Shown here one piece after another: positions 10,857 to 39,108 of a stretch of 40,586 nucleotides of DNA. Source of the DNA: a plasmid. Made by a program: the position numbers and the translations under genes. The notes beneath the pieces were generated by a model, which was not told where the DNA came from, did not search any database, and saw nothing but the letters and a program-made list of their open reading frames with translations. The DNA lies in the NCBI RefSeq assembly GCF_055900595.2, contig NZ_JBVWEU010000005.1. The stretch is one strand, 5' to 3'. Every line of letters begins with the position of its first letter. Within the stretch, counting starts at the first letter, position 1.

Positions 10857-10869
10857 TTTAGCAGCTAAA
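10857..10869. promoter_or_regulatory. KorB operator (OB) TTTAGCAGCTAAA between traJ and traI
   Basis: 13-bp palindrome in the 28-bp gap between the traJ stop and the traI GTG start. Confidence 0.7.
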
Positions 10870-10870
10870 A

Positions 10871-11230
10871 TCATTTGATCAGTATCCTATCCATTACTGT
10901 TCGTAGCTCGTTTTGGGTTGACTCAATTTTTGCCAAAAGAGTTTTGATTAGTGACACGGAAAAATTACGGGTTCTCTCGTCATTGGAAAGCCACAACTTC
11001 AGTAATCCGCCAAGTCGACCTAAATCACCATTTACCCGACTCAGCTCCTGAACCTGTTCAATATCGACCATGGATTCCACTTCATAACCCATTCCAACCT
11101 TACGCAGAAATGCGGCAGTGCTCAGTCCAGCGGCATCTGCGTTGCGCTTAATGATCGCTTCTTCTTCTGGCAGAACTGGCACACGAATGTGCTTGCCATG
11201 CTTACGTGTAGTTTTCACTTGTTCCGTCAT
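10871..11230 (-). CDS. traJ: TraJ oriT-recognition protein
   Basis: 119 aa, directly flanking oriT upstream of traI; SD GAGGT. Confidence 0.8.
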   Translation of the reverse strand: MTEQVKTTRKHGKHIRVPVLPEEEAIIKRNADAAGLSTAAFLRKVGMGYEVESMVDIEQVQELSRVNGDLGRLGGLLKLWLSNDERTRNFSVSLIKTLLAKIESTQNELRTVMDRILIK

Positions 11231-11464
11231 TTGACCTCACTCGCGGCGGTAGCCGCGTAGCCTCGCAGAGCAGGACTCCCCTTGAGAATCGAAGATGCGA
11301 ATAGGGGAGAGTAAAGTTTGATAACCTGTTTACAGGTTAGCTAACTTTACATGTCCTGCCCGGCTTTCGCCGGTGTTTACGCCAAGGAAAGTCTACACAA
11401 AGAAAAGTGGAATGTCGTGTTTTTTGATGTAAAACTGTGGATATAACGAAAAAACGGCGTTACT
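11231..11464. other. oriT: origin of transfer (oriT) between divergent traJ and traK
   Basis: Imperfect 17-bp inverted repeat 11313-11329 / 11332-11348, followed by TGTCCTGCCCGGC resembling the RP4 nic region ATCCTG/CCCGGC; predicted nic between 11358 and 11359. Confidence 0.75.
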
Positions 11465-11523
11465 ATGCCGCATACACCGGAAAACCAAGGTTTTCCGGGC
11501 GGTTTACAACTGTTATCCTGCTC

Positions 11524-11565
11524 AAATACACACGTAAATACACAGAAATACCTCATAAATACACA
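11524..11565. repeat. four helically phased AAATACACA-like direct repeats (spacing 10-12 bp)
   Basis: aaatacaca at 11524, 11536 and 11557, and aaatacctc at 11546; located between oriT and the likely traK start. Confidence 0.7.
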
Positions 11566-11578
11566 CGCAGGTTATCGG

Positions 11579-12013
11579 ATGGGAAAAGACTATTTAACTG
11601 ACCTACAGGAGTGGGTTAAGCAGAAAAAGGGGCTGAACGGCAAGAGTGCAAACAGCGGGAGGGTAGTCTTCCTGGCAATCCGGGAAGACGTCAGAAATGC
11701 GATTGAAGCCGGTTACTCTCTTACTACGATATGGGAACACATGCACGAAACTGGTCGTGTTAATACCACATACGAAACTTTTCGTCGGCATGTCCGGCGA
11801 TACATAGATGAACGAAAACGTGCAGCTGCTGTTAGCGAAAGTACACCTGCTGGAGCTACGGTAAAGAAAGAAAGCCAACAAACCGGTCCGTCACCGAAGA
11901 AAGAAACAGTGATCCCGGAGAGAACGCCGGTCAAAAGAGAGCCGCCTACGAATACCGGCAGTCAGCTGCCATCTTTCAATTTTAATCCTGGAAAAAAGAA
12001 GGGGACTAACTAA
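11579..12013 (+). CDS. traK: TraK-like basic oriT-binding protein
   Basis: Track ORF 11465..12013; start moved to the internal ATG at 11579 because the upstream part overlaps the phased repeats. Position between oriT and traL as in RP4. Start is uncertain. Confidence 0.6.
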   Translation: MGKDYLTDLQEWVKQKKGLNGKSANSGRVVFLAIREDVRNAIEAGYSLTTIWEHMHETGRVNTTYETFRRHVRRYIDERKRAAAVSESTPAGATVKKESQQTGPSPKKETVIPERTPVKREPPTNTGSQLPSFNFNPGKKKGTN

Positions 12014-12798
12014 TGCCTACTGCAGATAAAAATAAAAAACAGAGTGAAGCTGAATCAGTGCCGGTACGCCATGCTGTTCACAGCGCCCAGCAAGGAAAAG
12101 GTGGTTGTGGTAAATCCGTTAGCACCGCTTTGGTGGCAATGTACAAGATTAGCAAAGGTGAGCTACCGCTGTGCATCGATACCGATCCGCTCAATCCTAC
12201 ATTCTCTAATTATGAAAAACTGAACGTCCGACAGCTGAACATCATGGAAGGTGATGAAATTAATCAGCGCAAACTGGATACCCTCATCCAGTGGATTGAT
12301 GAAGCCGGTGATAGGGACGTTATTATCGATAACGGCGCTCCGTCATTTATTCCGTTATCAAGTTATATGATTAGCCAGCAAATCCCCGCCCTGCTTTATG
12401 AAATGGGTAAACAGCTTGTCATTCATATCTCGATTGTGGGGGGGCAGGCACATGATTACACCGTCGAGGGGTTCAAGGCCATGGTGGAGCAGTATCCGTC
12501 AGAAACCCGTTTTGTTGTCTGGCTTAACCCGTATTGGGGCGCGGTGGAATCCGATCAGGGAGTGCCATTCGAAGAATCAGAAGCGTACCTGATGAATAAA
12601 GACAAGGTTGATGCGCTTATCCGTTTGCCTACACTCAAAAAGGAGTTACACGGCCAGGACTTTGCCGACATGCTGGAAAACTACAAGACCTTCGATGAGG
12701 CCATTGAAGATAAATCATTATCTATTATGGTTCGCCAGCGTCTGAAACAGGTTCGCGCCCTTATTTTCGAACAGCTTGATTTAGCAACGGTGATCTGA
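12013..12798 (+). CDS. traL: TraL P-loop ATPase (MinD/ParA-like)
   Basis: 261 aa, Walker A QQGKGGCGKS; start overlaps the traK stop. Confidence 0.8.
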   Translation: MPTADKNKKQSEAESVPVRHAVHSAQQGKGGCGKSVSTALVAMYKISKGELPLCIDTDPLNPTFSNYEKLNVRQLNIMEGDEINQRKLDTLIQWIDEAGDRDVIIDNGAPSFIPLSSYMISQQIPALLYEMGKQLVIHISIVGGQAHDYTVEGFKAMVEQYPSETRFVVWLNPYWGAVESDQGVPFEESEAYLMNKDKVDALIRLPTLKKELHGQDFADMLENYKTFDEAIEDKSLSIMVRQRLKQVRALIFEQLDLATVI

Positions 12799-13238
12799 TG
12801 GATGATAAGACGGAAGAACTCATTGCGCTCATTGCTAAAAAGCATGGTATAGCCCTGGATGAAACCGATCCGATTATGGTCGTTCCTACCCTGCTTCGTT
12901 ATTTGCTGGATGAAAGCCAGGAGAAACAGGGTGAAATTCTGGATGAGTTTAAATCCGAGCTACAAAGCGCCCTGATGCAATGGGATTACAGCGCGAAGGA
13001 TAAGGCTGACCGTATCCTTAACGCCGCGCTAAAGGCGAATACGGAAGTAATGGAGCGGGTTTTGACATCTGCCGCCACAGAAACCGCTGTCATAATCAGA
13101 AAGGAAGTTCAGGACGAGATCAGAAAATCGCGGGCGCACATAGAAGGGGCAAGAAAACTTGCCATGATGAATATGGCGGCGGCGGTGATCACCTTAATGG
13201 CTGCTGCCGTCGCATTCATTGCAACGTTTTACAAGTGA
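12798..13238 (+). CDS. traM: TraM-like protein
   Basis: 146 aa, overlapping start/stop with traL, hydrophobic C-terminus; position as in RP4. Confidence 0.7.
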   Translation: MDDKTEELIALIAKKHGIALDETDPIMVVPTLLRYLLDESQEKQGEILDEFKSELQSALMQWDYSAKDKADRILNAALKANTEVMERVLTSAATETAVIIRKEVQDEIRKSRAHIEGARKLAMMNMAAAVITLMAAAVAFIATFYK

Positions 13239-13240
13239 CT

Positions 13241-13253
13241 ATTAGCCGCTAAG
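13241..13253. promoter_or_regulatory. degenerate KorB-operator-like palindrome (ATTAGCCGCTAAG) next to a perfect one
   Basis: 11 of 13 matches to TTTAGCSGCTAAA, 1 bp from the site at 13255. Confidence 0.4.
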
Positions 13254-13254
13254 T

Positions 13255-13267
13255 TTTAGCGGCTAAA
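13255..13267. promoter_or_regulatory. KorB operator (OB) TTTAGCGGCTAAA
   Basis: Perfect 13-bp palindrome matching the RK2 OB consensus TTTAGC(C/G)GCTAAA. Confidence 0.8.
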
Positions 13268-13357
13268 ATTTTGTTATGTTGTAGCGTGCCTTATCGCCAA
13301 CCGGCCTGAACCCCGTTTATCGGGGTTTCGCTGTTTTTAGGGGGTAGGAATTGTTGC

Positions 13358-13385
13358 GGAAAAAAATCCCCGCATGACGGGGATT
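13358..13385 (-). terminator. rho-independent terminator downstream of the kfrA-like gene
   Basis: Hairpin ATCCCCG-CATGA-CGGGGAT preceded on the plus strand by an A-run (a T-run on the minus strand). Confidence 0.55.
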
Positions 13386-13395
13386 CTGTAGCTGA

Positions 13396-14076
13396 TCAAG
13401 TTATTGTTCTTGTAAGGCTCAGACCATTCCCTTTACTTAGTGATGGGGCCTGCTCTCTTTGTAGCTTTTCTTTCTGTTCTTTCGCCTGCTTCCGCATGAG
13501 ATTCTCATGCGCTCGCTGTGCAGCCCGCATTTCATCCCATCCTTCGGCAAGCTCTGGTTTATCATGCCGCACTTTGGCCGTCGCAAGTTCGTGTATACGC
13601 GGGCCATGTAACCCCATCCCGTCATGAATCTCTTTGACAGTTTCCAGCCGGTTCTGCAGGCGACTCAGCAATGACTGTTGTTGTTGTACCTGTGACTTCC
13701 ATTTTGCCTTCTGGCCGGGCAGAGCCAAAAACCCAGGCTGACGACTCATCATCTGCTGCAGAACCGCCTCCTGCTTGTCTATCAGCGATTCCAGCCGGTT
13801 TTCAAGGTTTTCTGCCTGCGTTTCTTTATCCGCTACTGCCGCCTCTACCGCATCCTTATATTCCTGCTCAATGTTACCGGCGTCAGTTTGCGAATCCTGC
13901 AAATGGGAAGGGTCATTGATCAACTGCTGCTGTTCGTCATGCAGTTGCTGTACCTGTTCCTGGATATTTACGGCTTCCGACTCTGCGAGAAGATCAGGTG
14001 TAATATCAGGCTGCTGACGAGGGGAGGAGGTATCCCGGACCGCGCCGGGATTTTTAAATGGGGTAGTTGGCTTCAT
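13396..14076 (-). CDS. kfrA: KfrA-like coiled-coil protein
   Basis: 226 aa, Q/E-rich, predicted long alpha-helical; position after korB as in RK2; perfect SD AGGAG. Confidence 0.55.
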   Translation of the reverse strand: MKPTTPFKNPGAVRDTSSPRQQPDITPDLLAESEAVNIQEQVQQLHDEQQQLINDPSHLQDSQTDAGNIEQEYKDAVEAAVADKETQAENLENRLESLIDKQEAVLQQMMSRQPGFLALPGQKAKWKSQVQQQQSLLSRLQNRLETVKEIHDGMGLHGPRIHELATAKVRHDKPELAEGWDEMRAAQRAHENLMRKQAKEQKEKLQREQAPSLSKGNGLSLTRTIT

Positions 14077-14097
14077 CCGGGACTCCTACGCTATTCG

Positions 14098-14451
14098 CTA
14101 TCTGGAGAACTTCCGGCCCTGCTTCTCTGTGGCTGCTGCTACCTGAGCTTTACCGGAAGTCTGGTCATACGAAATACTTTTTTCCGTACCTACCTCTGGC
14201 AGTTTATCGAAATTTTGGCGATCATGCTTGAAAATCTGCTTACCTACCTGCTGATATACTGATTGCTTATCTGCGTGTAAAATCGGCCCATTATAAGAGC
14301 TGGCTTTATCCGGCCCCTTGGACAGATAAAGCGGGTAAATGCCTGGCTTTATGCTGCCCGCTCTATCAACATTGTCATTTTTCCATTTTCCAGCTTCTTC
14401 GCTTTGCAGCACTCGCTGGCCGTTCATGACAAGAACACGCTGTTTGCTCAT
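14098..14451 (-). CDS. hypothetical protein (first gene of the kfrA-like operon)
   Basis: 117 aa, perfect SD AAGGAG; no recognisable motif. Confidence 0.5.
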   Translation of the reverse strand: MSKQRVLVMNGQRVLQSEEAGKWKNDNVDRAGSIKPGIYPLYLSKGPDKASSYNGPILHADKQSVYQQVGKQIFKHDRQNFDKLPEVGTEKSISYDQTSGKAQVAAATEKQGRKFSR

Positions 14452-14948
14452 GTCGGTGTTACTCCTTGTGTTATCATCAACCGTCTGTATTGAGATAGGG
14501 CTAACTGCTATTTTTAAGTTGAATCGGCAACTGATTACCCAACTACTCTTTAACCATCATCCAGGTATTCTCCGGCCCTATGGATAAATGCCGTTAAAAA
14601 TGCGTTTGTGGGCTTCTTTCAGGCGCTGTTTGTCGAAAGGACCAAGATAGGGCTTTCTTCCAGCTACGATAAGTTAAGAGCTATTGTGTCACGCTCAATC
14701 CCTCATCCCAGCCAGGTTGATAAGGATGTCAGTACTCTGATACAGATATTGGTGTTTTTGCCGCTCATTCCTAATGTTGTTTTGCATGTTGAGTATGGTT
14801 CTTAACTCTCCCTGCGTCACCTTACTCATAAGTAACATCACCGGTAATGATGCGTTTTTAGGAAATAGCCGCCAGGAACCATGAATTCTCTGCCCTGACG
14901 GAACTACATAGCCCTCAGGTTAAATTTTGTTTAGCTACATCTATACAT

Positions 14949-14961
14949 TTTAGCGGCTAAA
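14949..14961. promoter_or_regulatory. KorB operator (OB) TTTAGCGGCTAAA
   Basis: Perfect 13-bp palindrome. Confidence 0.8.
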
Positions 14962-14983
14962 ATTATGCAATAAATAATATTAA

Positions 14984-15010
14984 TAAAAAAAATCCCGCGA
15001 CTGCGGGATT
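14984..15010 (-). terminator. rho-independent terminator after korB
   Basis: Hairpin AATCCCGC-GACT-GCGGGATT with a T-run on the minus strand, 22 bp past the korB stop. Confidence 0.6.
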
Positions 15011-15031
15011 CTGAGCGGAAATTGATACCTT

Positions 15032-16045
15032 TTATCCTTCAATAAGGCAAATTATTTTCACGTTTTCGAGATTTAGCTCTTCTTCTACACCAGTTGAATC
15101 AAACTTAATCCAGGCAAGCCCTTCTTCACTTGGGCGCTTGGTCAGGATAAGGCGGCCCTGCTCCCCCAGGTACTCAACGATAACAATAGCCTTTTTGAAT
15201 TTATCAGGATCGGTTTCCTTTTCTGGCGTCTTACGGACCTTATCGGTCACATCGTTATCATCGTGGCCGTCCGTATCATCTTCGGCAGCTTCCGAATCGG
15301 TACGGCCATTGAAGGCGTCAATGGTGTCTGGATCACGCTTGCTGGATTCTTTTTCGTCCAGGAACTCACGGAAAACTTTCACCGCACTACGGGTAATGTC
15401 TTCACCCTCGTTCTCTTCAAGCAGTTTTTGAACTTCTTCCGGGTCTTGCTTGTAAGCCGTTACCAGCTCATTAACTACGGTAACATCACGGATTGAACCT
15501 TTATTAAAAGCATCTGCTATACAATCCGGCAGGTCCAGCAACGCTGCGTGTTGGGTTACGAACGCTGGCGACTTGCCAAGCCGTTTAGCAATCTGAGATT
15601 TTGATACCCCCTCAGCCAGTTTGCGGCCAATGTGTACGGCAATTTCACGCGCCGTCAGGTCATTACGCTGGATGTTCTCAATGACCTGATCATCGTCGCT
15701 ATAGTCATTATCGATAAAAGCGGGAATTTGTTTCTTCCCGGCCACTTTACTGGCTCGCCAGCGACGTTCTCCATGGTTAATAATATAGCGCCCCGCTTGC
15801 TCCGGGTTCTCGCGAACGGAGACAGGCATTTTCACACCACGCGCTTTAATGGTATCAGCCAGCTCCTTAATGGATTCCTCTGAGAACCCTGGGTTGTCCT
15901 GCTTACGCGGTTGTTCAGGATCGGGATCAATCGCATCAACGTCCAGCATCAGTGGTTTACCCTCAGCACCTGCAGACGCATCAAGAAAGTCGGAGAGATC
16001 ACCAACGGTATCAAGGCCAAGGCCGGAAGAATTTTTTTTAGTCAT
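15032..16045 (-). CDS. korB: KorB (ParB-family partitioning protein and global repressor)
   Basis: 337 aa, ParB-like, acidic linker, follows incC with start/stop overlap; its cognate operators are scattered across the window. Confidence 0.85.
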   Translation of the reverse strand: MTKKNSSGLGLDTVGDLSDFLDASAGAEGKPLMLDVDAIDPDPEQPRKQDNPGFSEESIKELADTIKARGVKMPVSVRENPEQAGRYIINHGERRWRASKVAGKKQIPAFIDNDYSDDDQVIENIQRNDLTAREIAVHIGRKLAEGVSKSQIAKRLGKSPAFVTQHAALLDLPDCIADAFNKGSIRDVTVVNELVTAYKQDPEEVQKLLEENEGEDITRSAVKVFREFLDEKESSKRDPDTIDAFNGRTDSEAAEDDTDGHDDNDVTDKVRKTPEKETDPDKFKKAIVIVEYLGEQGRLILTKRPSEEGLAWIKFDSTGVEEELNLENVKIICLIEG

Positions 16046-16809
16046 TATGCAATCTCCATCTTAGTAAAAACATGATAGGCCAGTGCTCTCATTTCCTGGC
16101 TGGCTTTACGTGCTGCTGTCTTCTTGATTTTCCAGACAGGGACATGTGAAGCCAGTGCATCAGCAATGCTGCTTCGCAACCCGACAGACACAGGAACCAT
16201 TAACGTAGGGTAGGCCGTCTGCAGCTCCTGCAGGTGGTTTACATGGCGAGGATTGCGACCATCTACCTTACTTGGAACCATACCAATAAATTCCAGCTTG
16301 CTGTTCATTTTGCGTTTCACCTGGGTGAAGGTGGTCAGCATTTTTTTAATACCCTGAATTGAGTACACCTCAAGCTCAATAGGGCATACCACAAAATCAG
16401 CGCTCGCCAGCGCAACTATAAGCGCATTGTTAACCGTAGGCGCAGTATCAATCAGGCAGACGTCAAAGCCACTGTCCGCCAGCTGCTGCAGGTTATGGCG
16501 GAACTGCTTCACCATTTCCGGCAGATTTAATTTTTCTACGTTTGCCAGTTGAATATCTGACTCAATGAGAGAAATTCCGCTCTCAGGCATTTGAGTAAAG
16601 CGAGTTGGCTCGATCTCGCCCCACATTTCATTCGCTTTAATGCCGGACGAGAACTGTTTCAGGGTAAAAGAGGCGTTGCCCTGGGTATCCATATCGATTA
16701 CAGCAACCCGCTTGCCTCGTTCTGAAAAATCAAATGCCAGATGAACCAGGGTGGAAGTCTTGCCAACACCACCTTTTTGATTTGCTGTAACCAATACTTT
16801 CATAGCCAT
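16045..16809 (-). CDS. incC: IncC (ParA-family partitioning ATPase)
   Basis: 254 aa, deviant Walker A KGGVGKTS typical of ParA/MinD. Confidence 0.85.
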   Translation of the reverse strand: MAMKVLVTANQKGGVGKTSTLVHLAFDFSERGKRVAVIDMDTQGNASFTLKQFSSGIKANEMWGEIEPTRFTQMPESGISLIESDIQLANVEKLNLPEMVKQFRHNLQQLADSGFDVCLIDTAPTVNNALIVALASADFVVCPIELEVYSIQGIKKMLTTFTQVKRKMNSKLEFIGMVPSKVDGRNPRHVNHLQELQTAYPTLMVPVSVGLRSSIADALASHVPVWKIKKTAARKASQEMRALAYHVFTKMEIA

Positions 16810-16811
16810 CG

Positions 16812-17156
16812 CTATTCTTCCTGTTTACGTTTTGCCTCGTCAGCCCACTTTTTAACAATGAAAGCCTGCCGCTCCGGTAACACTACTTCAATACGCACAA
16901 AACCGTCAGGTACTTCTTGTTTATAGGCATCCCACACTCTGTTAACTGCCTGAGAAACAGCCCCGCGAGAAATATCCAGCGTTTCAACAAAATATTTCTG
17001 CGGTCTTCCTTCAACCAGTACGCCGTAAGCGATATCAAGCGTTTGCTTACCAACATTCAGGCTTCGGGTAACTCTTGCAAATACCTCATTAGTCAGGCGT
17101 TTTTTTTCATTGCCCGTTTTGGCAACATGCGGATCATTATTATTAACAGTCGTCAT
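16812..17156 (-). CDS. korA: KorA-like repressor
   Basis: Track ORF starts at 17213, which would place the start inside the KorA operator; the internal ATG at 17154-17156 has an SD and gives ~114 aa. C-terminus carries the PDGFVRIEVVLPERQAFIVKKW motif also seen in TrbA and KlcB. Confidence 0.7.
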   Translation of the reverse strand: MTTVNNNDPHVAKTGNEKKRLTNEVFARVTRSLNVGKQTLDIAYGVLVEGRPQKYFVETLDISRGAVSQAVNRVWDAYKQEVPDGFVRIEVVLPERQAFIVKKWADEAKRKQEE

Positions 17157-17214
17157 AAATTTACTTCCCGGTTCAACGCCTTTAACTAGACGCCTTAATG
17201 ACACCGCAAACAAA

Positions 17215-17226
17215 GTTTAGCTAAAC
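17215..17226. promoter_or_regulatory. KorA operator (OA) GTTTAGCTAAAC
   Basis: Perfect 12-bp palindrome identical to the RK2 class I KorA operator, upstream of korA. Confidence 0.8.
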
Positions 17227-17246
17227 CACGTGTGCAGGTCAATAAT

Positions 17247-17259
17247 TTTAGCTGCTAAA
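17247..17259. promoter_or_regulatory. KorB operator (OB) TTTAGCTGCTAAA
   Basis: 13-bp palindrome with central T, 20 bp from OA; OA plus OB pairing as at RK2 korAp. Confidence 0.75.
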
Positions 17260-17357: not shown

Positions 17358-17948
17358 CTAACGACTTAATTTCTTCTTTTTCATTCTGGCCTGCTCAATC
17401 TCTGTCCCAGCGACTTTTTTAAACCAATCAGGCAAATCATTAGAAATGAACTTTGTTTTATCTTGTTCTGTGCGGAAAAGTAATCGCCGTCTGTTATAAC
17501 TGTTATCAAATACCCATACCCGGTCAGCCACGGCCATAGCTTTAGGTAGGTTGGTTACAGAACGCTCGTATCGTCTGAAAATATCATCAACAGGCACATT
17601 ATGACCACCAAGGCTTACACGCTGGTTAACGCGAGCTACTGACATTCCTACATCTTTCACCCCCACATAGATTAAATTAATTTTGTAACCTGCAGTTGCA
17701 GCAAGCTGCATTAACTTAATCTCCCCCATTCCTGTGAGTGTCGTTTCTACAGCGAAAGTACATCTATTTTTGATATTTTCCGTGCGCAGAAAAAGTGCCT
17801 GCTCTCCTGCCTTTCGATTGCTTATACCTTGTTCCCGCGCAATATCATCAGGGTTAACAACCTCTATTTTCCCAAGGATATGTCGCTTAACTAGGGTAGA
17901 TTTTCCTGCACCATTAGGCCCAGCAATAACCCAGAGTTGAGGACGCAT
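17358..17948 (-). CDS. zeta-toxin-like P-loop kinase
   Basis: 196 aa; Walker A AGPNGAGKST at residues 9-18, then IEVVNPDDIA resembling the zeta-toxin hhhDNDxF segment; ATGA start/stop overlap with the upstream ORF. Confidence 0.55.
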   Translation of the reverse strand: MRPQLWVIAGPNGAGKSTLVKRHILGKIEVVNPDDIAREQGISNRKAGEQALFLRTENIKNRCTFAVETTLTGMGEIKLMQLAATAGYKINLIYVGVKDVGMSVARVNQRVSLGGHNVPVDDIFRRYERSVTNLPKAMAVADRVWVFDNSYNRRRLLFRTEQDKTKFISNDLPDWFKKVAGTEIEQARMKKKKLSR

Positions 17949-18199
17949 CAGAGCTTAACCTCAACTACTTTTTCTGTACCAGTCATGAAACTCACCAGTT
18001 CCTTACGGCCATCTGGATATTCTTTTATAACACACCCTTCTGGTGTATTTCGTTCAGCGTAATAAATAGGTACGCCACTAAGAAGATTGGCACGGGCTTC
18101 TTCACCTGCATCATATCCAAGTTGTCTATCAAAAACGGTAAAAAATCGTGCTTCATCAGAAGGTGTCATTTCGGCCAGATGAGATAGATCCATACTCAT
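17948..18199 (-). CDS. small protein translationally coupled to the kinase (candidate antitoxin/partner)
   Basis: 83 aa, acidic; its stop overlaps the kinase start. Confidence 0.45.
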   Translation of the reverse strand: MSMDLSHLAEMTPSDEARFFTVFDRQLGYDAGEEARANLLSGVPIYYAERNTPEGCVIKEYPDGRKELVSFMTGTEKVVEVKL

Positions 18200-18598: not shown

Positions 18599-18648
18599 AC
18601 CGGCCTCCTGCTTTATTCAAGTGGTTTACCAAACCTTTACGCATATTA

Positions 18649-18665
18649 TAGGACATATTGTCCTA
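18649..18665. promoter_or_regulatory. putative KorC-type operator TAGGACA-TAT-TGTCCTA
   Basis: Perfect 17-bp palindrome; same architecture as RK2 OC (TAGGGCATAATGCCCTA) with different half-site bases. Confidence 0.55.
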
Positions 18666-18675
18666 TAATTGCAAT

Positions 18676-18688
18676 TTTAGCAGCTAAA
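18676..18688. promoter_or_regulatory. KorB operator (OB) TTTAGCAGCTAAA
   Basis: 13-bp palindrome with central A. Confidence 0.75.
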
Positions 18689-18695: not shown

Positions 18696-18956
18696 TCACA
18701 CCTTCCAGATTTTACCCAATCCTGCATATTCAACCAGAATAGCCCAGGCCGAAAAAGGAATGGGTGTATCCCCCCCAACCCAGCGCCTGACGGTTCGGCT
18801 GTCTTTCAGACCGGTCAGTGTGGCTGCTTTGCTTCCTGTTAGCTCTGCTATCTGCATCAAAGTACGAATTTCTTCTGGCGTAGGACAATCCCATCCCGCA
18901 CCAAAGGGTAAAAAACATTCTGACCTGATTAAGACAGGGTAGGGTTTAGTTTGCAT
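18696..18956 (-). CDS. korC: KorC-like small HTH repressor
   Basis: 86 aa, starts immediately after the klcB stop (klcA-klcB-korC order as in RK2 kilC); HTH-like segment LTGSKAATLTGLKDSRTVRRW. Confidence 0.5.
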   Translation of the reverse strand: MQTKPYPVLIRSECFLPFGAGWDCPTPEEIRTLMQIAELTGSKAATLTGLKDSRTVRRWVGGDTPIPFSAWAILVEYAGLGKIWKV

Positions 18957-20590: not shown

Positions 20591-20643
20591 CGGAGTTCTC
20601 CGGTAATTGACCTGAGTGACTTACCCGGCCTTCACAAACATTA

Positions 20644-20660
20644 TAGGACATTTTGTCCTA
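20644..20660. promoter_or_regulatory. putative KorC-type operator TAGGACA-TTT-TGTCCTA
   Basis: Perfect 17-bp palindrome about 55 bp upstream of the klcA start. Confidence 0.55.
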
Positions 20661-20679
20661 TAATGTGAAGTGTTTTATT

Positions 20680-20886: not shown

Positions 20887-21366
20887 TCAAAATGGAACAT
20901 GGAGCCACCAATTTAGAACATTCGAAAAATGATCCAATTTCGCATAACGATTCTAAGACGATCCCTTTAAAGCCCTTCTTTCTGGCGTAAACCCTCCGGT
21001 TCTGTAGCGCATCAGTATTTTGAAGTGTGCTTGGTATCTCTAGCGAGTATCTATGCCCGGCAAAGGTACTTTGCCGAGAGCGAAGCGGCCTATGCTCGCG
21101 TAGCGAGTGAGTCATCTTTGGGGTGAAGACCGCTTGCGGTCGAGGGGCTTGCCCCTGGGGGGATGGGAGGCCGCTTGCGGCCGGGAGGGATTGAGAAGGG
21201 GGGTTTCCCCCCTTCGGGGGCGTCGTTAGACGCGGTTAAAAATAAGGTTAATTTTTTTGGTTAAAAGTGGTTAAAGGATCGGTTAAAAGATCGGTTAAAG
21301 ATCTGGTTAGAGGGGTGTGCAAAACTCAATTAAAGCCATGATTATTAAGGGGAAAAATATCCACAT

Positions 21367-21495
21367 GCGCCCCTCATATGTCATAAAGTAGCCCCTCAAG
21401 TGTCGTAATTCCGCCCCTCAAATATCATGATAGCGCCCTTCATATGTCATAATAGCGCCCCTCAAGTGTCACCTTTCCGCCCCTTAAATGTCGTA
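21367..21495. repeat. six 17-bp iterons at exact 22-bp spacing
   Basis: Copies of GCGCCCCTCAAGTGTCA-like sequence (reverse complement TGACACTTGAGGGGC, the RK2 iteron consensus) with CCCCTCA cores at 21370, 21392, 21414, 21436, 21458 and 21480. Confidence 0.85.
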
Positions 21496-21625
21496 TCTTT
21501 ACCGGGATATTAACAGACTTATCCACAAATTAAGGGGATAATTCTAACGTCTGGTTAAGCTCTATACGCCTAAACAAAATTTCGTGCGGGCTAAACTCGT
21601 CCTAAACAAAGAAGGGCGCAATAAA

Positions 21626-21673
21626 GCGCCCCTCAACTGTCATAAAAAAAATATGTGCCCCTCAAGTGTCACC
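21626..21673. repeat. two further iterons, the second overlapping the trfA stop codon
   Basis: gcgcccctcaactgtca (core 21629-21635) and gtgcccctcaagtgtca (core 21658-21664); the trfA stop (plus-strand tca at 21662-21664) sits inside the second core. Confidence 0.75.
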
Positions 21674-22614: not shown

Positions 22615-22989
22615 TCAATCAGTTTTCTTACCTGCAACTGCGGAACTGCTTGCCGGGGATTTTATATTTAAATACTGAATATTCTCTGCAATGTAATCGA
22701 TGCCATACACTTTTTGGCCGTTTGATTCATACTGGGTGTTACGCATAGAACCTTCTACAAAGACCTGCGAGCCTTTTCCTAGGAACTTTGCAGCGTTTTC
22801 TGCAGCCTTACCCCATACCTTGATGCGGAAAAAGTCGGTATATTCCTTAACTTCACCGGTTTCCTGATCTTTATAGCTCCCGTTAACCGCTATATCGAAA
22901 ATTGCGATTGGTGTGCTTTTTGCTGTATACCGTAACTCTGTGTCTTTTGTTAGATTTCCGATAAACTGAAAACGATTAAGATTTTTCAT
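22615..22989 (-). CDS. ssb: single-stranded DNA-binding protein
   Basis: 124 aa OB-fold SSB-like sequence (FQFIGNLTKDTELRY...), upstream of trfA as in RK2. Confidence 0.8.
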   Translation of the reverse strand: MKNLNRFQFIGNLTKDTELRYTAKSTPIAIFDIAVNGSYKDQETGEVKEYTDFFRIKVWGKAAENAAKFLGKGSQVFVEGSMRNTQYESNGQKVYGIDYIAENIQYLNIKSPASSSAVAGKKTD

Positions 22990-23024
22990 ATGCAGTCTCG
23001 ATTTCTGTGACTAAGGAATACAGA

Positions 23025-23036
23025 GTTTAGCTAAAC
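23025..23036. promoter_or_regulatory. KorA operator (OA) GTTTAGCTAAAC
   Basis: Perfect 12-bp palindrome between divergent ssb-trfA and trbA. Confidence 0.8.
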
Positions 23037-23055
23037 AATTTAATTCGGTCAATAT

Positions 23056-23068
23056 TTTAGCCGCTAAA
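23056..23068. promoter_or_regulatory. KorB operator (OB) TTTAGCCGCTAAA
   Basis: Perfect 13-bp palindrome 20 bp from OA. Confidence 0.8.
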
Positions 23069-23147
23069 ATTTACATCGAGGCGTAAGCGTATCGTGTACA
23101 ACCTAATTTTTTTTACTAACATCCTCAGACTTCTTGAAGAAAGAGAC

Positions 23148-23498
23148 ATGACAAAGCAGGAACTATCCCAAAAAGCTGGGGTTTCAATCTCTTTTTTGTC
23201 GGACCTAACAAATGGAAAAGCGAACCCATCTTTAAGGGTGATGGAATCCATTGCTAATGCCCTCGATGTAGCCCTTCCCGTTCTCCTTGAAACAACTGAC
23301 CTTGATGAACACAGTCTTATGCTTATGGCTGATGGAAAACCTGTAAAAAGTCTCCCTCCCGGATATGTAAGAGTGTCCGTAATTCTTTCTGAACAGCAAG
23401 CCTTTCGGGTACGAATGTGGAGTGAACATACACGTCAGAAGTTAGAGCAAGAAGCCAAAGCAATGCTGGAGATCATGCAAGAAAAGAAAAACAGTTAA
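23148..23498 (+). CDS. trbA: TrbA-like repressor (XRE HTH plus KorA-type C-terminal domain)
   Basis: Track ORF starts at 23094; the ATG at 23148 (MTKQELSQKAGVSISFLSDL...) starts the HTH. C-terminal motif PPGYVRVSVILSEQQAFRVRMW. Confidence 0.7.
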   Translation: MTKQELSQKAGVSISFLSDLTNGKANPSLRVMESIANALDVALPVLLETTDLDEHSLMLMADGKPVKSLPPGYVRVSVILSEQQAFRVRMWSEHTRQKLEQEAKAMLEIMQEKKNS

Positions 23499-23532: not shown

Positions 23533-23545
23533 TTTAGCCGCTAAA
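23533..23545. promoter_or_regulatory. KorB operator (OB) TTTAGCCGCTAAA in the trbB promoter region
   Basis: Perfect 13-bp palindrome between trbA and trbB. Confidence 0.8.
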
Positions 23546-23680
23546 AAACATCCCCTTTCCCGTCTTCGAACTACCAATAATTTCACTTTAATGTTTGCTT
23601 AACTATTGCCTGAAAACTTGTTTCGTTATATCGTTTGTCGTAATTCCCATTATAAACGCAGTAAAAATAAAGGATGAATT

Positions 23681-30059: not shown

Positions 30060-30062
30060 AAG

Positions 30063-31469: not shown

Positions 31470-32240
31470 ATGAATACACGTTTCGTTTTAGCCGCTAAAA
31501 AAGCGTTACTAGCTTCCTTCGTGGCGTCAATCATGGCCCTACCTGCGAAAGCTGGTATTCCTGTTATTGATGCTACTAATGTGGTGCAGACCACAATCAG
31601 CGCTGTCAATAACGTTCAGGCTGTGGCTAAACAGATCCAACAGTATCAGACGCAGTTGCAACAATATGAAAACATGCTGAGAAACACAGTCGCACCTGCG
31701 GCCTATATATGGGATCAGGCCAATTCAACTATCAACAAATTATTGCAGGCACAGGACACTCTTAATTACTACAAAAATCAGGCCGGGAGTCTTGACTCAT
31801 ATCTAAAACGTTATCAGGACATTAATTACTACCGTTCATCGCCATGCTTTAACAGTAATGTTGAATGCACTGCAGATGAAATTAGCGCACTACGTAAAGC
31901 TGAACAAAATAACTCTGAGGCTCGTAAAAAGGCCAATGACGCTGTTTTTAAGGTTCTCGATGAACAGCAAGAAACACTGCAAAGAGATGCAGATAACCTT
32001 GCTGACTTACAAACTCAAGTAACTGGAGCACAGGGGCAAATGGAAGCTATTCAGGCCGCTAACCAGCTTGCCAGTGCGCAAACAAACCAGTTACTGCAAA
32101 TCCGCTCGCTTCTAGTTGCCCAGCAAAACGCTGCAACTACACTGGCGCAGGCTCAGGCCGATAAAGAGGCCCAGCAAGCGGCTGCATCAGAAACTTTTAG
32201 GGCAGGGACTTATACCAAAAGCCCCGCTCAATCTTGGTAA
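31470..32240 (+). CDS. trbJ: TrbJ (VirB5-like)
   Basis: 256 aa, signal peptide, coiled-coil; codons 5-10 carry a KorB operator. Confidence 0.8.
   Translation: MNTRFVLAAKKALLASFVASIMALPAKAGIPVIDATNVVQTTISAVNNVQAVAKQIQQYQTQLQQYENMLRNTVAPAAYIWDQANSTINKLLQAQDTLNYYKNQAGSLDSYLKRYQDINYYRSSPCFNSNVECTADEISALRKAEQNNSEARKKANDAVFKVLDEQQETLQRDADNLADLQTQVTGAQGQMEAIQAANQLASAQTNQLLQIRSLLVAQQNAATTLAQAQADKEAQQAAASETFRAGTYTKSPAQSW
31487..31499. promoter_or_regulatory. KorB operator (OB) TTTAGCCGCTAAA inside the trbJ coding sequence
   Basis: Perfect 13-bp palindrome encoding part of the TrbJ signal peptide (FVLAAKK). Confidence 0.7.
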
Positions 32241-33975: not shown

Positions 33976-33985
33976 GGCTATTAAT

Positions 33986-34294: not shown

Positions 34295-34309
34295 CAAAAG
34301 GGAAATAAT

Positions 34310-35083: not shown

Positions 35084-35247
35084 TTTTTGCGTCTAGCGTC
35101 TAAAACATGCTAATGCTGGTCGTGTCGTTATGCCTCTTTTTTGCTTTGTTCTGGCGTATTAAGGGCGGGGAGGGACCATTCCTCACCCTTTAATAAAAGA
35201 AGTTAGAAACCAAAACATTTATACGTTTGTTATGCATTATTAAATAA

Positions 35248-35616
35248 TTAGGGCTTTTTTTTCAAAGTCGAAAGTGCGTAAACTATTCTTGATATAGATA
35301 ATATATCTTTTTTATCTAAACTGGATATATTCCAGACGATGAAATTATGAGCCTTAACAACTTCGTCATTTTGCTCATCATTTTTTAGCATTGCATCTTC
35401 CTTTATATTAACAATATCTCCATGTGCCAATTCATTTAAATCAACGCCTGTCACCATCGCAATTTTAATAATATCACTGAACTTAGGTTCAGTTTTACCG
35501 GACGCTATCCTGACCAGCGTACTCACGCTAATGCCAGTCTTCTCGGCCAGTTCTTCATAAGTCGAGTTTTCCAGAATTACATTCTTGATTCTTTCCGCTC
35601 TAATTTCTTTGCTCAT
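35248..35616 (-). CDS. XRE-family HTH protein
   Basis: 122 aa, HTH LAEKTGISVSTLVRIASGK; low-GC gene downstream of the recombinase. Confidence 0.55.
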   Translation of the reverse strand: MSKEIRAERIKNVILENSTYEELAEKTGISVSTLVRIASGKTEPKFSDIIKIAMVTGVDLNELAHGDIVNIKEDAMLKNDEQNDEVVKAHNFIVWNISSLDKKDILSISRIVYALSTLKKKP

Positions 35617-35647
35617 TTAATCTCTACCTTATATTATTTAAATTTAA

Positions 35648-36274
35648 TTACTTATTTTTATGTTTAGACCATACAGCTTTTACAAGACTAACGCTACATT
35701 CACAAAGTTTCGCTGTTTCCGCAATACTCGTCTTCCTTGAACGATACTCAATGATGCGTTTATGGAGCCGTAGATTTGCAGTTCGCCCCTGATACCGGCC
35801 TTGCCGTTTAGCCAGCTCAATACCCTCTTTCTGGCGTTTACGACGGTTTTCATACTCATCCCTTGCCAACTGTAGGGCAACTTTGAGTAACATATCCTGA
35901 ACAGATTCCAGAACGACCTTCGCGACACCGGATTGAGCGTTTGCCAGTTCGGTAAGATCCACAATACCGGGAATGGCGAGCTTCGCTCCCCGCTCTTTTA
36001 TAGAGTTTATTAACGCTAACGCACTATCGAGCGGTAAACGACTGATACGATCTATATGTTCTGCAATAACTACTTCGTCTAGCTGCAGATCATCAATCAT
36101 ACGTTGCAGTTCCGGGCGGTCAGCTCTTGCACCGGACGCCTTTTCTTTATAGATACCGGCAACATAGAATCCATTATTCCTGGCATTTTCAATAATTTCA
36201 TTTTGCCGGGTTAAATCTTGTTCGTCTGTACTAACCCGCAAATATATTCGCGCTATTTTCATATAATAAAACAC
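35648..36274 (-). CDS. serine recombinase (resolvase/invertase family)
   Basis: 208 aa; N-terminal catalytic motif YLRVSTDEQ, C-terminal HTH. Confidence 0.8.
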   Translation of the reverse strand: MFYYMKIARIYLRVSTDEQDLTRQNEIIENARNNGFYVAGIYKEKASGARADRPELQRMIDDLQLDEVVIAEHIDRISRLPLDSALALINSIKERGAKLAIPGIVDLTELANAQSGVAKVVLESVQDMLLKVALQLARDEYENRRKRQKEGIELAKRQGRYQGRTANLRLHKRIIEYRSRKTSIAETAKLCECSVSLVKAVWSKHKNK

Positions 36275-36345
36275 CCCAGCAAATCAATCACGCAATCATC
36301 TATCAATATTCTCTGGTTATGTCTCTTTCTCGCATTATCCATTCG

Positions 36346-36711
36346 TTATTTAATTATGTTTTCTGATGCATGGAGCAACCAGTAGAATATAATCATTCCC
36401 GCACCAGAAAACACTGCGGCGACAGCGAGCCACAAACGCTTATGCACTCCTTCTGATATGCCTGAGAAATATCCTGTATGGAGTAGCAGCAGCGACCATG
36501 ACAACCCTCCTGCCAGACCCAGCAGGGCAGGAGGGATATGCCACAGTTCATATTTCATAATAACAATACCTTCTGCCATCATCATGGACAGAGTGCAAAC
36601 AACAAAACAGTCCCATGAAAAAAAACGCCTGTCAGCAGCAAGAAAAATCACTGTCAGTGACATCACTGTCACTTGGGCCAGCAATAAAGGCCATAAAGAA
36701 ATAAAATTCAT
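36346..36711 (-). CDS. small integral membrane protein
   Basis: 121 aa, 3-4 hydrophobic helices; upstream of the recombinase on the same strand. Confidence 0.45.
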   Translation of the reverse strand: MNFISLWPLLLAQVTVMSLTVIFLAADRRFFSWDCFVVCTLSMMMAEGIVIMKYELWHIPPALLGLAGGLSWSLLLLHTGYFSGISEGVHKRLWLAVAAVFSGAGMIIFYWLLHASENIIK

Positions 36712-36771
36712 TTAATCTTCTCCTCAAGTGCCTTTAAAGTAAATGCGTAGGCTAGTTAATTAAGGTATACC

Positions 36772-36803
36772 CTAAAAAACCACTCGGTGAGTGGCAGGTT
36801 TTT
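36772..36803. terminator. bidirectional hairpin terminator
   Basis: CCACTC-GGT-GAGTGG stem-loop flanked by an A-run on one side and a T-run on the other. Confidence 0.45.
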
Positions 36804-37012
36804 TACTGCACTCACAGTGTAAACTGGCCAGGACAATCAAGGCAACCTTAAAAAGCCATCAATGTGATAAAAATGACATGACATCACTTTTATCACTTTT
36901 TAATGTGGTAGCATCATCTAATGTTGAATCATTAATTACTGTCATTTACTACAAGATTTACGCCATAAGAAAAAAAGCAAAACTCGTAATATTAGCTATC
37001 AGCAGCTACGAT

Positions 37013-37025
37013 TTTAGCCGCTAAA
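37013..37025. promoter_or_regulatory. KorB operator (OB) TTTAGCCGCTAAA
   Basis: Perfect 13-bp palindrome. Confidence 0.8.
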
Positions 37026-37039
37026 AGATTCTCTTACTT

Positions 37040-37663
37040 CTATTTATCTTTAAATTCATCCTGCAGCTTATCAATGCCTTTAGTTAAATCTTGACTTTTA
37101 CCATCTTTATAATCAGGCCATGGAATAAACATCTTTCCTGATTCCTGCATCATTGCAATTGATGTAGGACAGCGCCATTCAGATTCATCACCTTTTTTGT
37201 ATTTAAAAACAACCATTCCACGTTCACACTTAACATCGGGGGAAATGGACTGAATAAACATCGAATTAGCGGAACCATTCTCACCGGCATTGAACATTGC
37301 GCTGTCAAAAAATATAAATGCGAGAATTAATGAGAGAACGGCACAACCAGTATTCCAGAATTTCTTTCCACGTTCGGAATAAAATGAAAACATCATCACC
37401 ATTGCTAGAGATGAAATAAAACCTAACCATTGTGACGCAACTGAAAGTTGTGAAAGCGTTTTAACTGTATAACCACCTTCACCAGAAAGGAAAGACAAAA
37501 TAAACGGTGAAACAATAAAGCAAATTGCTGGAAAACAGGTAAATATCAGTTTGGCATTATTCTTGATTAACTGGCGCTCTCCAGAAGCCGCCGCGATCAT
37601 CGACTGCCACATGATTTTTACCAGCGTCAGCATCAGAACACTGCAGATCAACATATAAAGCAC
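37040..37663 (-). CDS. membrane protein with C-terminal soluble domain, under two putative OC operators
   Basis: 207 aa, about 4 TM helices then a charged C-terminal region; function unknown. Confidence 0.55.
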   Translation of the reverse strand: MLYMLICSVLMLTLVKIMWQSMIAAASGERQLIKNNAKLIFTCFPAICFIVSPFILSFLSGEGGYTVKTLSQLSVASQWLGFISSLAMVMMFSFYSERGKKFWNTGCAVLSLILAFIFFDSAMFNAGENGSANSMFIQSISPDVKCERGMVVFKYKKGDESEWRCPTSIAMMQESGKMFIPWPDYKDGKSQDLTKGIDKLQDEFKDK

Positions 37664-37706
37664 GGCTTACTCCCAATCCTTAGACGCTTTGAAAACCACT
37701 TGCAAA

Positions 37707-37723
37707 TAGGACAAAATGTCCTA
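37707..37723. promoter_or_regulatory. putative KorC-type operator TAGGACA-AAA-TGTCCTA
   Basis: Perfect 17-bp palindrome 44 bp upstream of the 207-aa gene. Confidence 0.55.
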
Positions 37724-37732
37724 TCATAGATG

Positions 37733-37749
37733 CAGGACATAATGTCCTA
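37733..37749. promoter_or_regulatory. putative KorC-type operator CAGGACA-TAA-TGTCCTA
   Basis: Second copy 10 bp from the first; tandem arrangement. Confidence 0.5.
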
Positions 37750-37816
37750 TATGAAGGATGATAGGGAGGCAGCAACCTCCCTATCCGACACCTAAAATCC
37801 GTGCAAGGAATTTGAA

Positions 37817-38023
37817 ATGTCCCATATATCCTATAGCAAAACAGCATCATATGACAGACGGCCACTGGAGTATCTTTCCCTGTCAGATTTCATCCATGCT
37901 CTTCCAACCGTTACCATTGATGAGATTGAAAAACTCGCTGAGACAAACATCCACTTGGTCGAGCAGATACCACGTTACCTGAGCCAAATGGTCAGCCATG
38001 AATGCAGACTTATTGGTTTTTAA
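37817..38023 (+). CDS. small ORF in the divergent intergenic region
   Basis: 68 aa with AAGGA-like SD; may be a leader or regulatory peptide, or spurious. Confidence 0.25.
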   Translation: MSHISYSKTASYDRRPLEYLSLSDFIHALPTVTIDEIEKLAETNIHLVEQIPRYLSQMVSHECRLIGF

Positions 38024-38097
38024 TAGATCTTATTAAAAATAAATAGATACATATAGAATCAATTTGAAACTTTTAATGAAGACAAACCGCCCTCATT

Positions 38098-39084
38098 ATG
38101 AAGCCACACACTCTCCCAAAATGGTGCGTTATGAAAAAATTTCAGGTCAGAAATTTCCCGGACGATGCATATTTCGCCTTGGAACAGTTAGCAAACGAAA
38201 ATCAACGTTCGGTCGAAGGTGAGGCCCGCTATGCTCTGTTGAAATGGATAGCACCTCCTGAGCAGGTTTATTCTGGAGAAGAACTATACCGGCAGGAAGT
38301 GTCTGGCCGCCTCAATACAGTTCTGCGGAAAACCAACCAATTCCGTAACTACAAACCTCTTGTGCCGTCCAATGTGGCCGTAGAGCTGAGGATTGAAGAT
38401 CTTGGCCTTGTCGCCAACTGGTTCAGTGGTGACGTACTCCCTTCCTTCACTGAGCTGCAGCGGTTAAGCAAGTTATTTGGTTGTCGCGCCGACTGGTTAA
38501 TTCACGGTGAGGGGGATGTGTATGAATGGAACTCAGGCGTCAGAATGCACGGCGCAGGCCGGGCTGCTGTTAAGCACCTTCTCAGACCTGATAGTGATGG
38601 TAATAAAGTCACAGACATCAGGCTGCTAAGAGAAGATAGTGATATAGGAGCACTTCTGATACTCCGTGAGTTTGAAAATACACGGTATGTTGATGCGTTC
38701 TGGACAAACCTACACGTAAGTGAAGCCATTGGAGCCGGTGGCGAGTCTGATTTGGCTGATTTTTTTGTCACTCTTCGGGCGCTGTACAAGAGTTTTGTCA
38801 AACTTGATGTAAACGTCAAAGGCTACCTTATGCCGCGATCTGCCTATAAGCAAATCAGAGAAGAGGAACAAGCCTATCCACTGATGCTTCTCAAGGATTA
38901 TCGTGTAAATGAAAGCATGTGGTGGGAGGATATTTGGGATAAAAGTCAAAGAGGTAAATTTAATTACTGGAAAGGTGATGAGGCGCTGATTCGTCGCATT
39001 GAAGATGCAATAAAGCGTAATAAAAGATTGCTTGATGAAATTGAAGCTATTAAAAACTCAGATCCTTTGGACCATGATGATTAA
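38098..39084 (+). CDS. multidomain protein: Arc/MetJ-type ribbon-helix-helix, XRE-like HTH and a ~180-aa C-terminal domain of unknown function
   Basis: Segment MKKFQVRNFPDDAYFALEQLANENQRSVEGEARYALLKW resembles RHH proteins; ...LSKLFGCRADWLIHGEG resembles the end of an XRE HTH. True start may be the ATG at 38131. Confidence 0.55.
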   Translation: MKPHTLPKWCVMKKFQVRNFPDDAYFALEQLANENQRSVEGEARYALLKWIAPPEQVYSGEELYRQEVSGRLNTVLRKTNQFRNYKPLVPSNVAVELRIEDLGLVANWFSGDVLPSFTELQRLSKLFGCRADWLIHGEGDVYEWNSGVRMHGAGRAAVKHLLRPDSDGNKVTDIRLLREDSDIGALLILREFENTRYVDAFWTNLHVSEAIGAGGESDLADFFVTLRALYKSFVKLDVNVKGYLMPRSAYKQIREEEQAYPLMLLKDYRVNESMWWEDIWDKSQRGKFNYWKGDEALIRRIEDAIKRNKRLLDEIEAIKNSDPLDHDD

Positions 39085-39095
39085 CGTTCATTTAT

Positions 39096-39108
39096 TTTAG
39101 CCGCTAAA
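39096..39108. promoter_or_regulatory. KorB operator (OB) TTTAGCCGCTAAA
   Basis: Perfect 13-bp palindrome 12 bp after the stop of the RHH-HTH gene. Confidence 0.8.

Follow-up and report, generated by a model that had tools for sequence, protein, structure and literature searches.

The plasmid contig NZ_JBVWEU010000005.1 (NCBI RefSeq assembly GCF_055900595.2) comprises 40,586 nucleotides and carries the same 13-bp palindrome, TTTAGCNGCTAAA, at many places. This raises the question whether these copies are operators of the regulator KorB, whether they bind the whole stretch (hereafter the window) into one regulon, and what they tell about the genes next to them. A preliminary description had taken them for KorB-type operators, had seen the entire window as a single regulon and had concluded that two operators within a block of lower GC (guanine plus cytosine) content mark the genes there as integrated backbone functions rather than recent cargo. 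Judging from sequence, we consider it highly likely that the molecule is an IncP-1-type conjugative plasmid of a low-GC Enterobacterial subgroup and that the palindromes are its own predicted KorB operators. The two further-reaching claims stand only in part.

Predicted KorB operators and the plasmid that carries them

An exact search of both strands delivered 11 perfect copies, starting at positions 5813, 10857, 13255, 14949, 17247, 18676, 23056, 23533, 31487, 37013 and 39096, while in 100 dinucleotide-preserving shuffles the mean was 0.01 and the maximum one. Thus chance occurrence is negligible (11 against 0.01), as had been claimed, and the ten perfect coordinates listed before are all correct. 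The earlier total of eleven matches ours as well, however only by accident: it was composed of ten perfect copies and one degenerate copy, while the perfect site 5813, outside the span then considered, had been overlooked. The degenerate copy reported at 13241 was confirmed (ATTAGCCGCTAAG); it deviates by two mismatches at its outermost positions. When one mismatch was allowed on both strands, the check proposed in the preliminary description, a single site was added, 1909 in traC (TTTAGCGACTAAA). Two mismatches added 35092, just past trbN (TCTAGCGTCTAAA), and 32726, which is probably fortuitous. All 12 arm positions of the operator core TTTAGC(G/C)GCTAAA are perfect at 11 of 11 sites, ten of which extend to the 15-bp palindrome TTTTAGCNGCTAAAA. 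All four bases occur at the centre, as described before, but within a palindrome they reduce to two classes: eight sites have a G/C centre and three (10857, 17247 and 18676) an A/T centre. On the circle, the largest interval between perfect sites is 7,954 bp, and every point lies at most about 4 kb from a site.

To judge what kind of molecule carries these sites, its ends are informative. The traC (primase) reading frame of 1277 codons on the minus strand continues unbroken from 39990-40586 into 1-3222; the window therefore represents an entire circular replicon of 40,586 bp whose ends lie within traC. Its GC content is 45.4%, compared to 64.1% in the IncP-1beta plasmid R751. Conjugative plasmids of about 41 kb from E. 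coli, Klebsiella and Salmonella, for example pSTEC2018_607-e and pCFSA664-2, match the window at 99-100% identity over long stretches. Based on the annotation of near-identical records, the IncP-1 backbone is complete (trfA, ssb, korA-incC-korB, kfrB, kfrC, klcA-klcB-korC and kleE), and the same annotation provides the transfer genes trbA to trbN and traC to traM of the Trb/Tra2 and Tra1 regions. Accordingly, the predicted hallmarks of an IncP-1 (IncP/P-1) plasmid are found together: trfA, an iteron-type oriV, korA-incC-korB, Tra2, Tra1 and oriT. The iterons (GCCCCTCAnnTGTC) match, in reverse complement, the consensus that PMC9499019 quotes for iterons of RK2, and the near relative pCFSA664-2 has been placed in an unnamed IncP/P-1 subgroup lacking kfrA (Hayakawa 2022, PMC9499019). 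A search of the window against Rfam found nothing besides the traJ-II RNA of the oriT region (Table 1).

The presence of korB in the window had been noted before and is clearly supported by its similarity to RK2 KorB (Table 1). Moreover, KorA, KorB, KorC and TrbA, the four global regulators known from the RK2 network, are all encoded. In the alignment, KorB is identical to its RK2 counterpart at R117, N146, T211, R240 and F249 (numbering from the 1R71 chain for T211 and R240), and the motifs RDVTVVNEL and ITR are conserved, as expected for a cognate KorB on the same replicon. T211 and R240 are reportedly the residues that give RK2 KorB its DNA specificity. R117 and N146 belong to the cytidine triphosphate (CTP) pocket of RK2 KorB, while F249 is the docking residue for its partners KorA and TrbA (PMC11790492). 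On the side of these partners the interface with KorB is aromatic (bioRxiv 10.64898/2026.05.27.728120): KorA of the window has an aromatic F at the position of RK2 Y84, and TrbA keeps the F of its conserved QAF motif, which corresponds to the interface residue F104. Thus, the residues associated with clamp locking are present in all three proteins.

For a comparison at the level of sites we used R751 (NC_001735), assembled from two parts and scanned, as sequence-level reference, while the comparison to RK2 rests on the literature. R751 comprises ten perfect and two one-mismatch KorB sites. The window has a counterpart for each of those located at the kfrA, korA, kleA, trfA and trbB promoters, where trbJ starts, past trbN, within traC and traF, and between traJ and traI; at trfA, for instance, the orthologous KorB and KorA sites are located at 16902 and 16870 of R751. 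Conversely, nine of the 11 perfect window sites and both decayed ones (1909 and 35092) map to operator positions of R751, while 37013 and 39096 lack a counterpart. Orthologous sites are identical at 12 or 13 of 13 positions, whereas their 60-bp flanks share only about 42-77%. The two sites inside traF and trbJ are of special value in this respect. Both read TTA GCN GCT AAA (Leu-Ala-Ala-Lys) in the window and in R751, rare TTA included. Since these codons are kept even at 64% GC, their identity points to selection acting on the DNA sequence itself.

We further compared seven relatives (L001, L002 and L005 to L009), which diverge by up to about 8-10%. All backbone sites are conserved in seven of seven. 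The equivalent of 35092 after trbN is perfect in L005, L008 and L009, and that of 1909 in traC at least in L005 and L009; thus, point mutations have cost the window two sites. Among the relatives, the central base varies at 10857, where all four bases occur, at 17247 and at 18676, while the arms never change. This natural variation suggests an unconstrained central base, which does not imply equal affinity.

Consequently, the palindromes are KorB-type as first proposed: they have the RK2/R751 operator sequence, a KorB orthologue is encoded, nine of 11 are orthologous to R751 sites and the korA and trfA promoters show an RK2-like geometry. That they represent a chance or compositional product, or some generic mobile repeat that has nothing to do with KorB, finds nothing in its favor beyond the AT-rich arms of the motif and is refuted by the shuffles (0.01 expected), by the same motif at orthologous positions of the 64% GC R751 and by foreign cargo that is free of sites. 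KorB operators were found neither in the transposon and integron segments of R751 nor in the mcr-1 cassette of L005. We consider the probability of this explanation practically nil. The features discussed here and below are compiled in Table 1.

Table 1. Coordinates of KorB sites, promoters, regulator genes and further features of the window.
Feature	Position	Strand	Remarks
KorB operator	5813-5825		inside traF (L-A-A-K codons); orthologue R751 46603, same frame
KorB operator, A/T centre	10857-10869		between traJ stop and traI start, 15 bp upstream of traI start codon; orthologue R751 51058
Tandem KorB pair	13241-13267		degenerate 13241-13253 and perfect 13255-13267, 1 nt apart; convergent traM/kfrC ends; kept in relatives
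KorB operator	14949-14961		past korB terminator, before kfrB; degenerate KorA operator 14929-14940
KorB operator	23533-23545		trbA-trbB intergenic, trbB promoter region; orthologue R751 17375
KorB operator	31487-31499		inside trbJ, codons 6-10 (L-A-A-K); orthologue R751 25579, same frame
KorB operator	37013-37025		just past orf207 stop, about 300 bp upstream of orf121-resolvase-HTH; branch-specific
KorB operator	39096-39108		convergent orf328/hha ends, beside two-way terminator hairpin 39116-39140
Decayed KorB operator	1909-1921		traC, 1 mismatch; R751 1-mismatch site 41267 in traC
Decayed KorB operator	35092-35104		just past trbN stop, 2 mismatches; R751 1-mismatch site 29563 after trbN
korA promoter	17214-17259	minus	KorB operator 17247-17259; -35 TTGACC 17237-17242; -10 TAAACT under KorA operator 17215-17226
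trfA (ssb-trfA) promoter	23024-23068	minus	divergent from trbA; KorB operator 23056-23068; -35 TTGACC 23047-23052; KorA operator 23025-23036 on -10
kleE promoter	18645-18688	minus	KorB operator (A/T centre) 18676-18688; -35 TTGCAA; KorC operator 18649-18665; -10 TATAAT
klcA promoter	20640-20669	minus	KorC operator 20644-20660; without KorB operator
Promoter TTGCAA-16-TATCAT	37700-37749	plus	KorC operators 37707-37723 (perfect) and 37733-37749 (1 mismatch); predicted to drive orf68 and orf328
Candidate TrbA operator TTTCGGTATATCGAA	8431-8440		inside traI, upstream of traG, between KorB sites 5813 and 10857
Candidate TrbA operator TTCGTTATATCG	23624-23633		about 90 bp downstream of KorB site 23533
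korB	15032-16045	minus	ParB-family CTPase clamp, 337 amino acids; E 1e-91 to RK2 KorB (8QA8), E 7.5e-63 to KorB-operator complex chain 1R71
incC	16045-16809	minus	open reading frame; ParA partner of KorB; ParA family protein in annotation of relatives
korA	16812-17156	minus	Pfam KORA, E 9e-26; E 1.5e-29 to RK2 KorA structures
korC	18696-18956	minus	86 amino acids; 56% identity to R751 KorC, E 7e-29
trbA	23094-23498	plus	65% identity to R751 TrbA; KorA-like C-terminal domain
oriV iterons	21365-21670		8 copies, 6 of 8 at 22-bp spacing
Rfam traJ-II cis-regulatory RNA	11259-11361	minus	99.9 bits; oriT region, upstream of traJ
orf68	37817-38023		downstream of 37700-37749 promoter
orf328	38098-39084		downstream of 37700-37749 promoter
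hha	39141-39320	minus	Hha/YmoA family; tail of traC operon; about 110 related plasmids at at least 86% identity

Promoter-linked and distal sites

The claim of one regulon was judged by the position of the operators relative to promoters. Three of them are promoter-proximal: the gap between the KorB operator and the -35 box is 4 bp at korA, 3 bp at trfA and 1 bp at kleE; in the literature, 'proximal' KorB operators are those 4-10 bp from a promoter (PMC11790492). At korA and trfA, perfect KorA operators (GTTTAGCTAAAC) cover the -10 box, and the centres of both operators are spaced by 32.5 and 31.5 bp, respectively. This is 32.5 bp at both promoters of R751 and 33 bp in RK2 (PMC3199767), so that the known geometry, with a KorB operator near the -35 box and a KorA operator on the -10 box about 33 bp apart, is found at both promoters. 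At kleE, the spacer is instead taken by the KorC operator TAGGACATATTGTCCTA. The KorC operator TAGGACAnnnTGTCCTA, a 17-bp palindrome, is present four times (perfect at 18649, 20644 and 37707, with one mismatch at 37733) where 0.09 copies were expected, and its sequence is the same as that at the kleA and klcA promoters of R751 (TAGGACAAAATGTCCTA), as expected for a KorC regulon.

Other sites are linked to promoters through orthology. Site 14949 occupies the position of the R751 kfrA-promoter site 2481, which has a KorA-operator-like sequence at 2465, although kfrA itself is missing here: about 480 bp without a credible open reading frame lie between this KorB/KorA-operator-like promoter region and kfrB (14452-14948), and tblastn revealed no kfrA remnant in the 480-bp korB-kfrB gap (best E 1.1, with the match located elsewhere). 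Downstream of 23533, a candidate TrbA operator precedes trbB, where R751 has a matching motif (TTCGATATATCG). The motif TTCGnTATATCG occurs at 23624-23633 and 8431-8440, with a third copy at 22888-22897 inside ssb. With one mismatch allowed, the TrbA operator core CGATATATCG was found three times in the window against 0.7 expected, which is not significant alone. However, the first two candidates are credible because the same two positions are conserved in R751 and L005; the 8431 motif, for example, stands at the equivalent place in R751 (49019) and in L005 (18338). It is plausible that this candidate gives the otherwise orphan KorB sites 5813 and 10857 a target. Two promoter or intergenic sites of R751 are not shared, since the window lacks the KorB operators at the klcA promoter (R751 8528) and between kfrB and kfrC; instead, it possesses the tandem site between traM and kfrC. 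Taken together, both copies of this tandem resemble a terminator, with a stem of 11 bp and a T-run after it, and the pair could double as terminator of traK-L-M.

Several observations weigh against our reading of the sites as KorB operators of an RK2-like repression network. First, for five to six perfect sites no promoter could be recognised within 200 bp. Second, a generic sigma-70 scan found no more promoters than expected from shuffles (19 against 23; 8 against 12.8), and thus our promoter calls rest on orthology and operator placement. Third, there are only two perfect KorA operators in the window. RK2 has seven (PMC3199767), and consequently fewer promoters are open to cooperation of KorA and KorB here. 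With two mismatches allowed, KorA operators were found four times against 2.1 expected, which is no better than chance, and the copy at 14929 is kept tentatively as it adjoins a KorB operator. Fourth, three sites have an A/T centre, a type absent from the sites of R751. We know of no A/T-centred KorB operator in RK2 either.

Taken together, the claim of one regulon finds support at about six sites that lie near recognisable promoters (korA, trfA/trbA, trbB, kleE, kfrB and possibly orf121) and overstated for those at traF, traJ/traI, trbJ, traM/kfrC and 39096, which are intragenic or at operon ends. To our knowledge, the intragenic and operon-end sites of RK2 have no adjacent promoter as well. 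Since KorB is also a partition (ParB) protein, some of the sites may be centromere rather than operators.

This dual nature can be taken further, in that the sites would mainly be parS-like partition sites for IncC/KorB, with dispersed copies loading KorB for segregation and repression being incidental. KorB belongs to the ParB family, with matches to structures of Spo0J, ParB and Noc (E 1e-15 to 1e-21), and the ParA gene incC is adjacent. Several sites are intragenic or at operon ends, away from promoters, and KorB operator 3 of RK2 is reported to be required for partitioning (Williams 1998). In contrast, three sites abut a -35 box, and together with KorA or KorC operators they are arranged exactly as in RK2/R751, which is an architecture of repression, and in RK2 the two roles are not mutually exclusive (PMC11790492). 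We therefore regard a mainly partitioning function as possible yet doubtful, and prefer operators of a repression network to which partition may be added.

For this network, the mechanism would follow RK2. A KorB dimer would bind each palindrome and, after taking up CTP, form a closed clamp that slides on the DNA (PMC11790492), until KorA or TrbA at the -10 box would trap the clamp and exclude RNA polymerase (PMC11790492; 2026 TrbA preprint). Direct repression is to be expected at the korA, trfA and kleE promoters, because there the KorB operator abuts the -35 box. The sites within and between the tra and trb genes, and those in the lower-GC block, may act as distal loading sites, while at least one site might serve as IncC/KorB partition centromere, for which the tandem 13241/13255 is the foremost candidate. 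By analogy to RK2 we infer binding, sliding and repression as well as the tolerance of an A/T centre.

Predicted operators in the block between Tra1 and Tra2

The block at 35084-39989 is indeed of lower GC content, albeit modestly so (40.7% compared to 46.0% in the rest of the window). It comprises the genes of a helix-turn-helix (HTH) protein and a resolvase, orf121, orf207, orf68, orf328, the gene of Hha and orf163. Hha/YmoA proteins are partners of the nucleoid protein H-NS. For orf121, orf207, orf68 and orf163, searches of Pfam and NCBIfam revealed no function, and for orf328 only weak ribbon-helix-helix or HTH matches. Consequently, gene identity is of no help in judging whether these are backbone functions, and the argument has to come from the operators and their surroundings.

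Site 37013 is part of an island of about 38 bp that is kept in seven of seven relatives while the flanks differ. A query of the island together with a 65-aa (amino acid) gene found 108 PLSDB records at at least 95% identity, and most of these alignments start exactly at the island. The window itself lacks this 65-aa gene and a 295-aa gene, which both flank the island in L006, L007 and L008, whereas L006 and L007 are devoid of orf207. In L005 (pMCR16_P053), an mcr-1.6-pap2 cassette (3055-5718) is located about 150 bp from the equivalent operator and truncates the adjacent 65-aa gene. Site 39096, in turn, is specific for a sub-branch: it is present in L001, L002, L006 and L007 and absent from L005, L008 and L009. 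A third regulatory element of the block is the promoter at 37700-37749, which aligns with the kleE and klcA promoters; a promoter with KorC operator is found here in all relatives.

Based on these findings, the two parts of the earlier interpretation fare differently. That 37013 and 39096 extend the network into the block is supported, even more strongly than first described, as the block is wired in by two KorC operators on a promoter and 37013 is conserved branch-wide. That the genes are thereby backbone rather than cargo is not, since adjacent genes are swapped or deleted among close relatives, 39096 is limited to a sub-branch and mcr-1 lies about 150 bp from an operator. Thus, proximity to a KorB operator is no proof that a gene belongs to the backbone.

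The same variability permits a more skeptical view, in which 37013 and 39096 are passengers of exchanged IncP-1-like gene modules, or relics, and regulate nothing in the block. Site 39096 occurs only where the orf68-orf328 module abuts hha, being missing from L005, L008 and L009; both sites lie at 3' ends of genes and not beside a -35 box; and the flanking genes vary, with homology breaking right at the operator island. However, this island outlasts independent deletions on both of its sides and retains at least 95% identity in about 108 records, while other sites without promoter, 1909 and 35092, are decayed in the same plasmid. In addition, KorC operators are placed on a promoter of the block that is conserved throughout the branch. 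For these reasons we think it rather unlikely that both sites are mere passengers. Instead, as far as these comparisons reach, the block has a predicted regulatory scaffold that is old and branch-specific, while its gene content turns over.

One might speculate about a purpose of such a scaffold. The KorB/KorC network would have been extended over the variable region between Tra1 and Tra2, the island at the junction of module swaps would be a fixed clamp-loading point that dampens expression, and thereby the fitness cost, of neighboring cargo, and the A/T-centred operators would form a class of graded affinity. We consider this scenario as a whole distinctly improbable. For comparison, the accessory region between trb and tra of R751 is a Tn402-type element that carries neither a KorB nor a KorC operator. 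The plasmid pJJ1886_4 has a further private KorB operator within its own accessory genes.

Two smaller details of the block are worth recording. A decayed copy of the operator adjoins the perfect site 37013 (36990-37025), and the equivalent site in L005 and L008 is preceded by A(T/C)TAGCGGCTAcgat. Upstream of orf121-resolvase, the repeats AAAGTGAT and the inverted repeat GTGATAAAA...TTTTATCAC are found at 36870-36925 (minus reading); they may be a res (resolution) site, or else the local HTH protein may use them as operator.

Relation to RK2 and further features

The KorB-operator system described here is of a thoroughly known kind, that of the IncP-1 plasmids, and its occurrence in an uncharacterised low-GC Enterobacterial branch is well supported. 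RK2/RP4 (IncP-1alpha) has 12 KorB operators, OB1-OB12 (PMC3199767), compared to 11 perfect sites in the window. Both share the core TTTAGC-N-GCTAAA, the KorB operator before the -35 box with the KorA operator on the -10 box at korA and trfA, distal and intragenic sites in tra and trb, and four regulators with conserved interface and CTP-pocket residues. In contrast to RK2, the window has a GC content of 45%, three A/T centres, two instead of seven KorA operators, no kfrA and no KorB operator at the klcA promoter. Furthermore, two additional KorB and two KorC operators are located between Tra1 and Tra2, where none are reported for RK2. Modest novelty lies in the operators with an A/T centre and in those KorB and KorC operators between Tra1 and Tra2 that are specific to the branch. 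Similarities to ParB-parS systems exist as well: KorB has an N-terminal CTPase fold and a GxRR motif, its loading sites are palindromic, and the ParA gene incC lies next to it. Nevertheless, its sites do not form one clustered centromere but are scattered over the replicon and set against promoters together with partner repressors.

With operator, promoter geometry and interface residues being the same, the control logic of RK2 very probably carries over largely intact to this branch. If so, the results on sliding and locking of the RK2 KorB clamp, and any inhibitor of the interface, should hold for clinically circulating plasmids as well. The branch comprises about 110 PLSDB records from E. 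coli, Klebsiella, Salmonella and Enterobacter, with mcr-1, blaCMY-2 and other resistance genes. The KorB and KorC operators that are specific to it and located in the accessory block represent a natural test case for whether distal loading sites silence adjacent cargo.

Besides these main aspects, two observations concern other genes. The relative L009 possesses a KfrA-like gene, with 29% identity to KfrA of R751, that is located between kfrC and traM and bracketed by two KorB operators. Finally, a gene of the zeta-toxin family (17358-18199, minus strand) follows kleE in the window, together with an upstream partner of 83 aa. Both appear to belong to the operon of the kleE promoter with its KorB and KorC operators and would be a toxin-antitoxin-like pair under global control.

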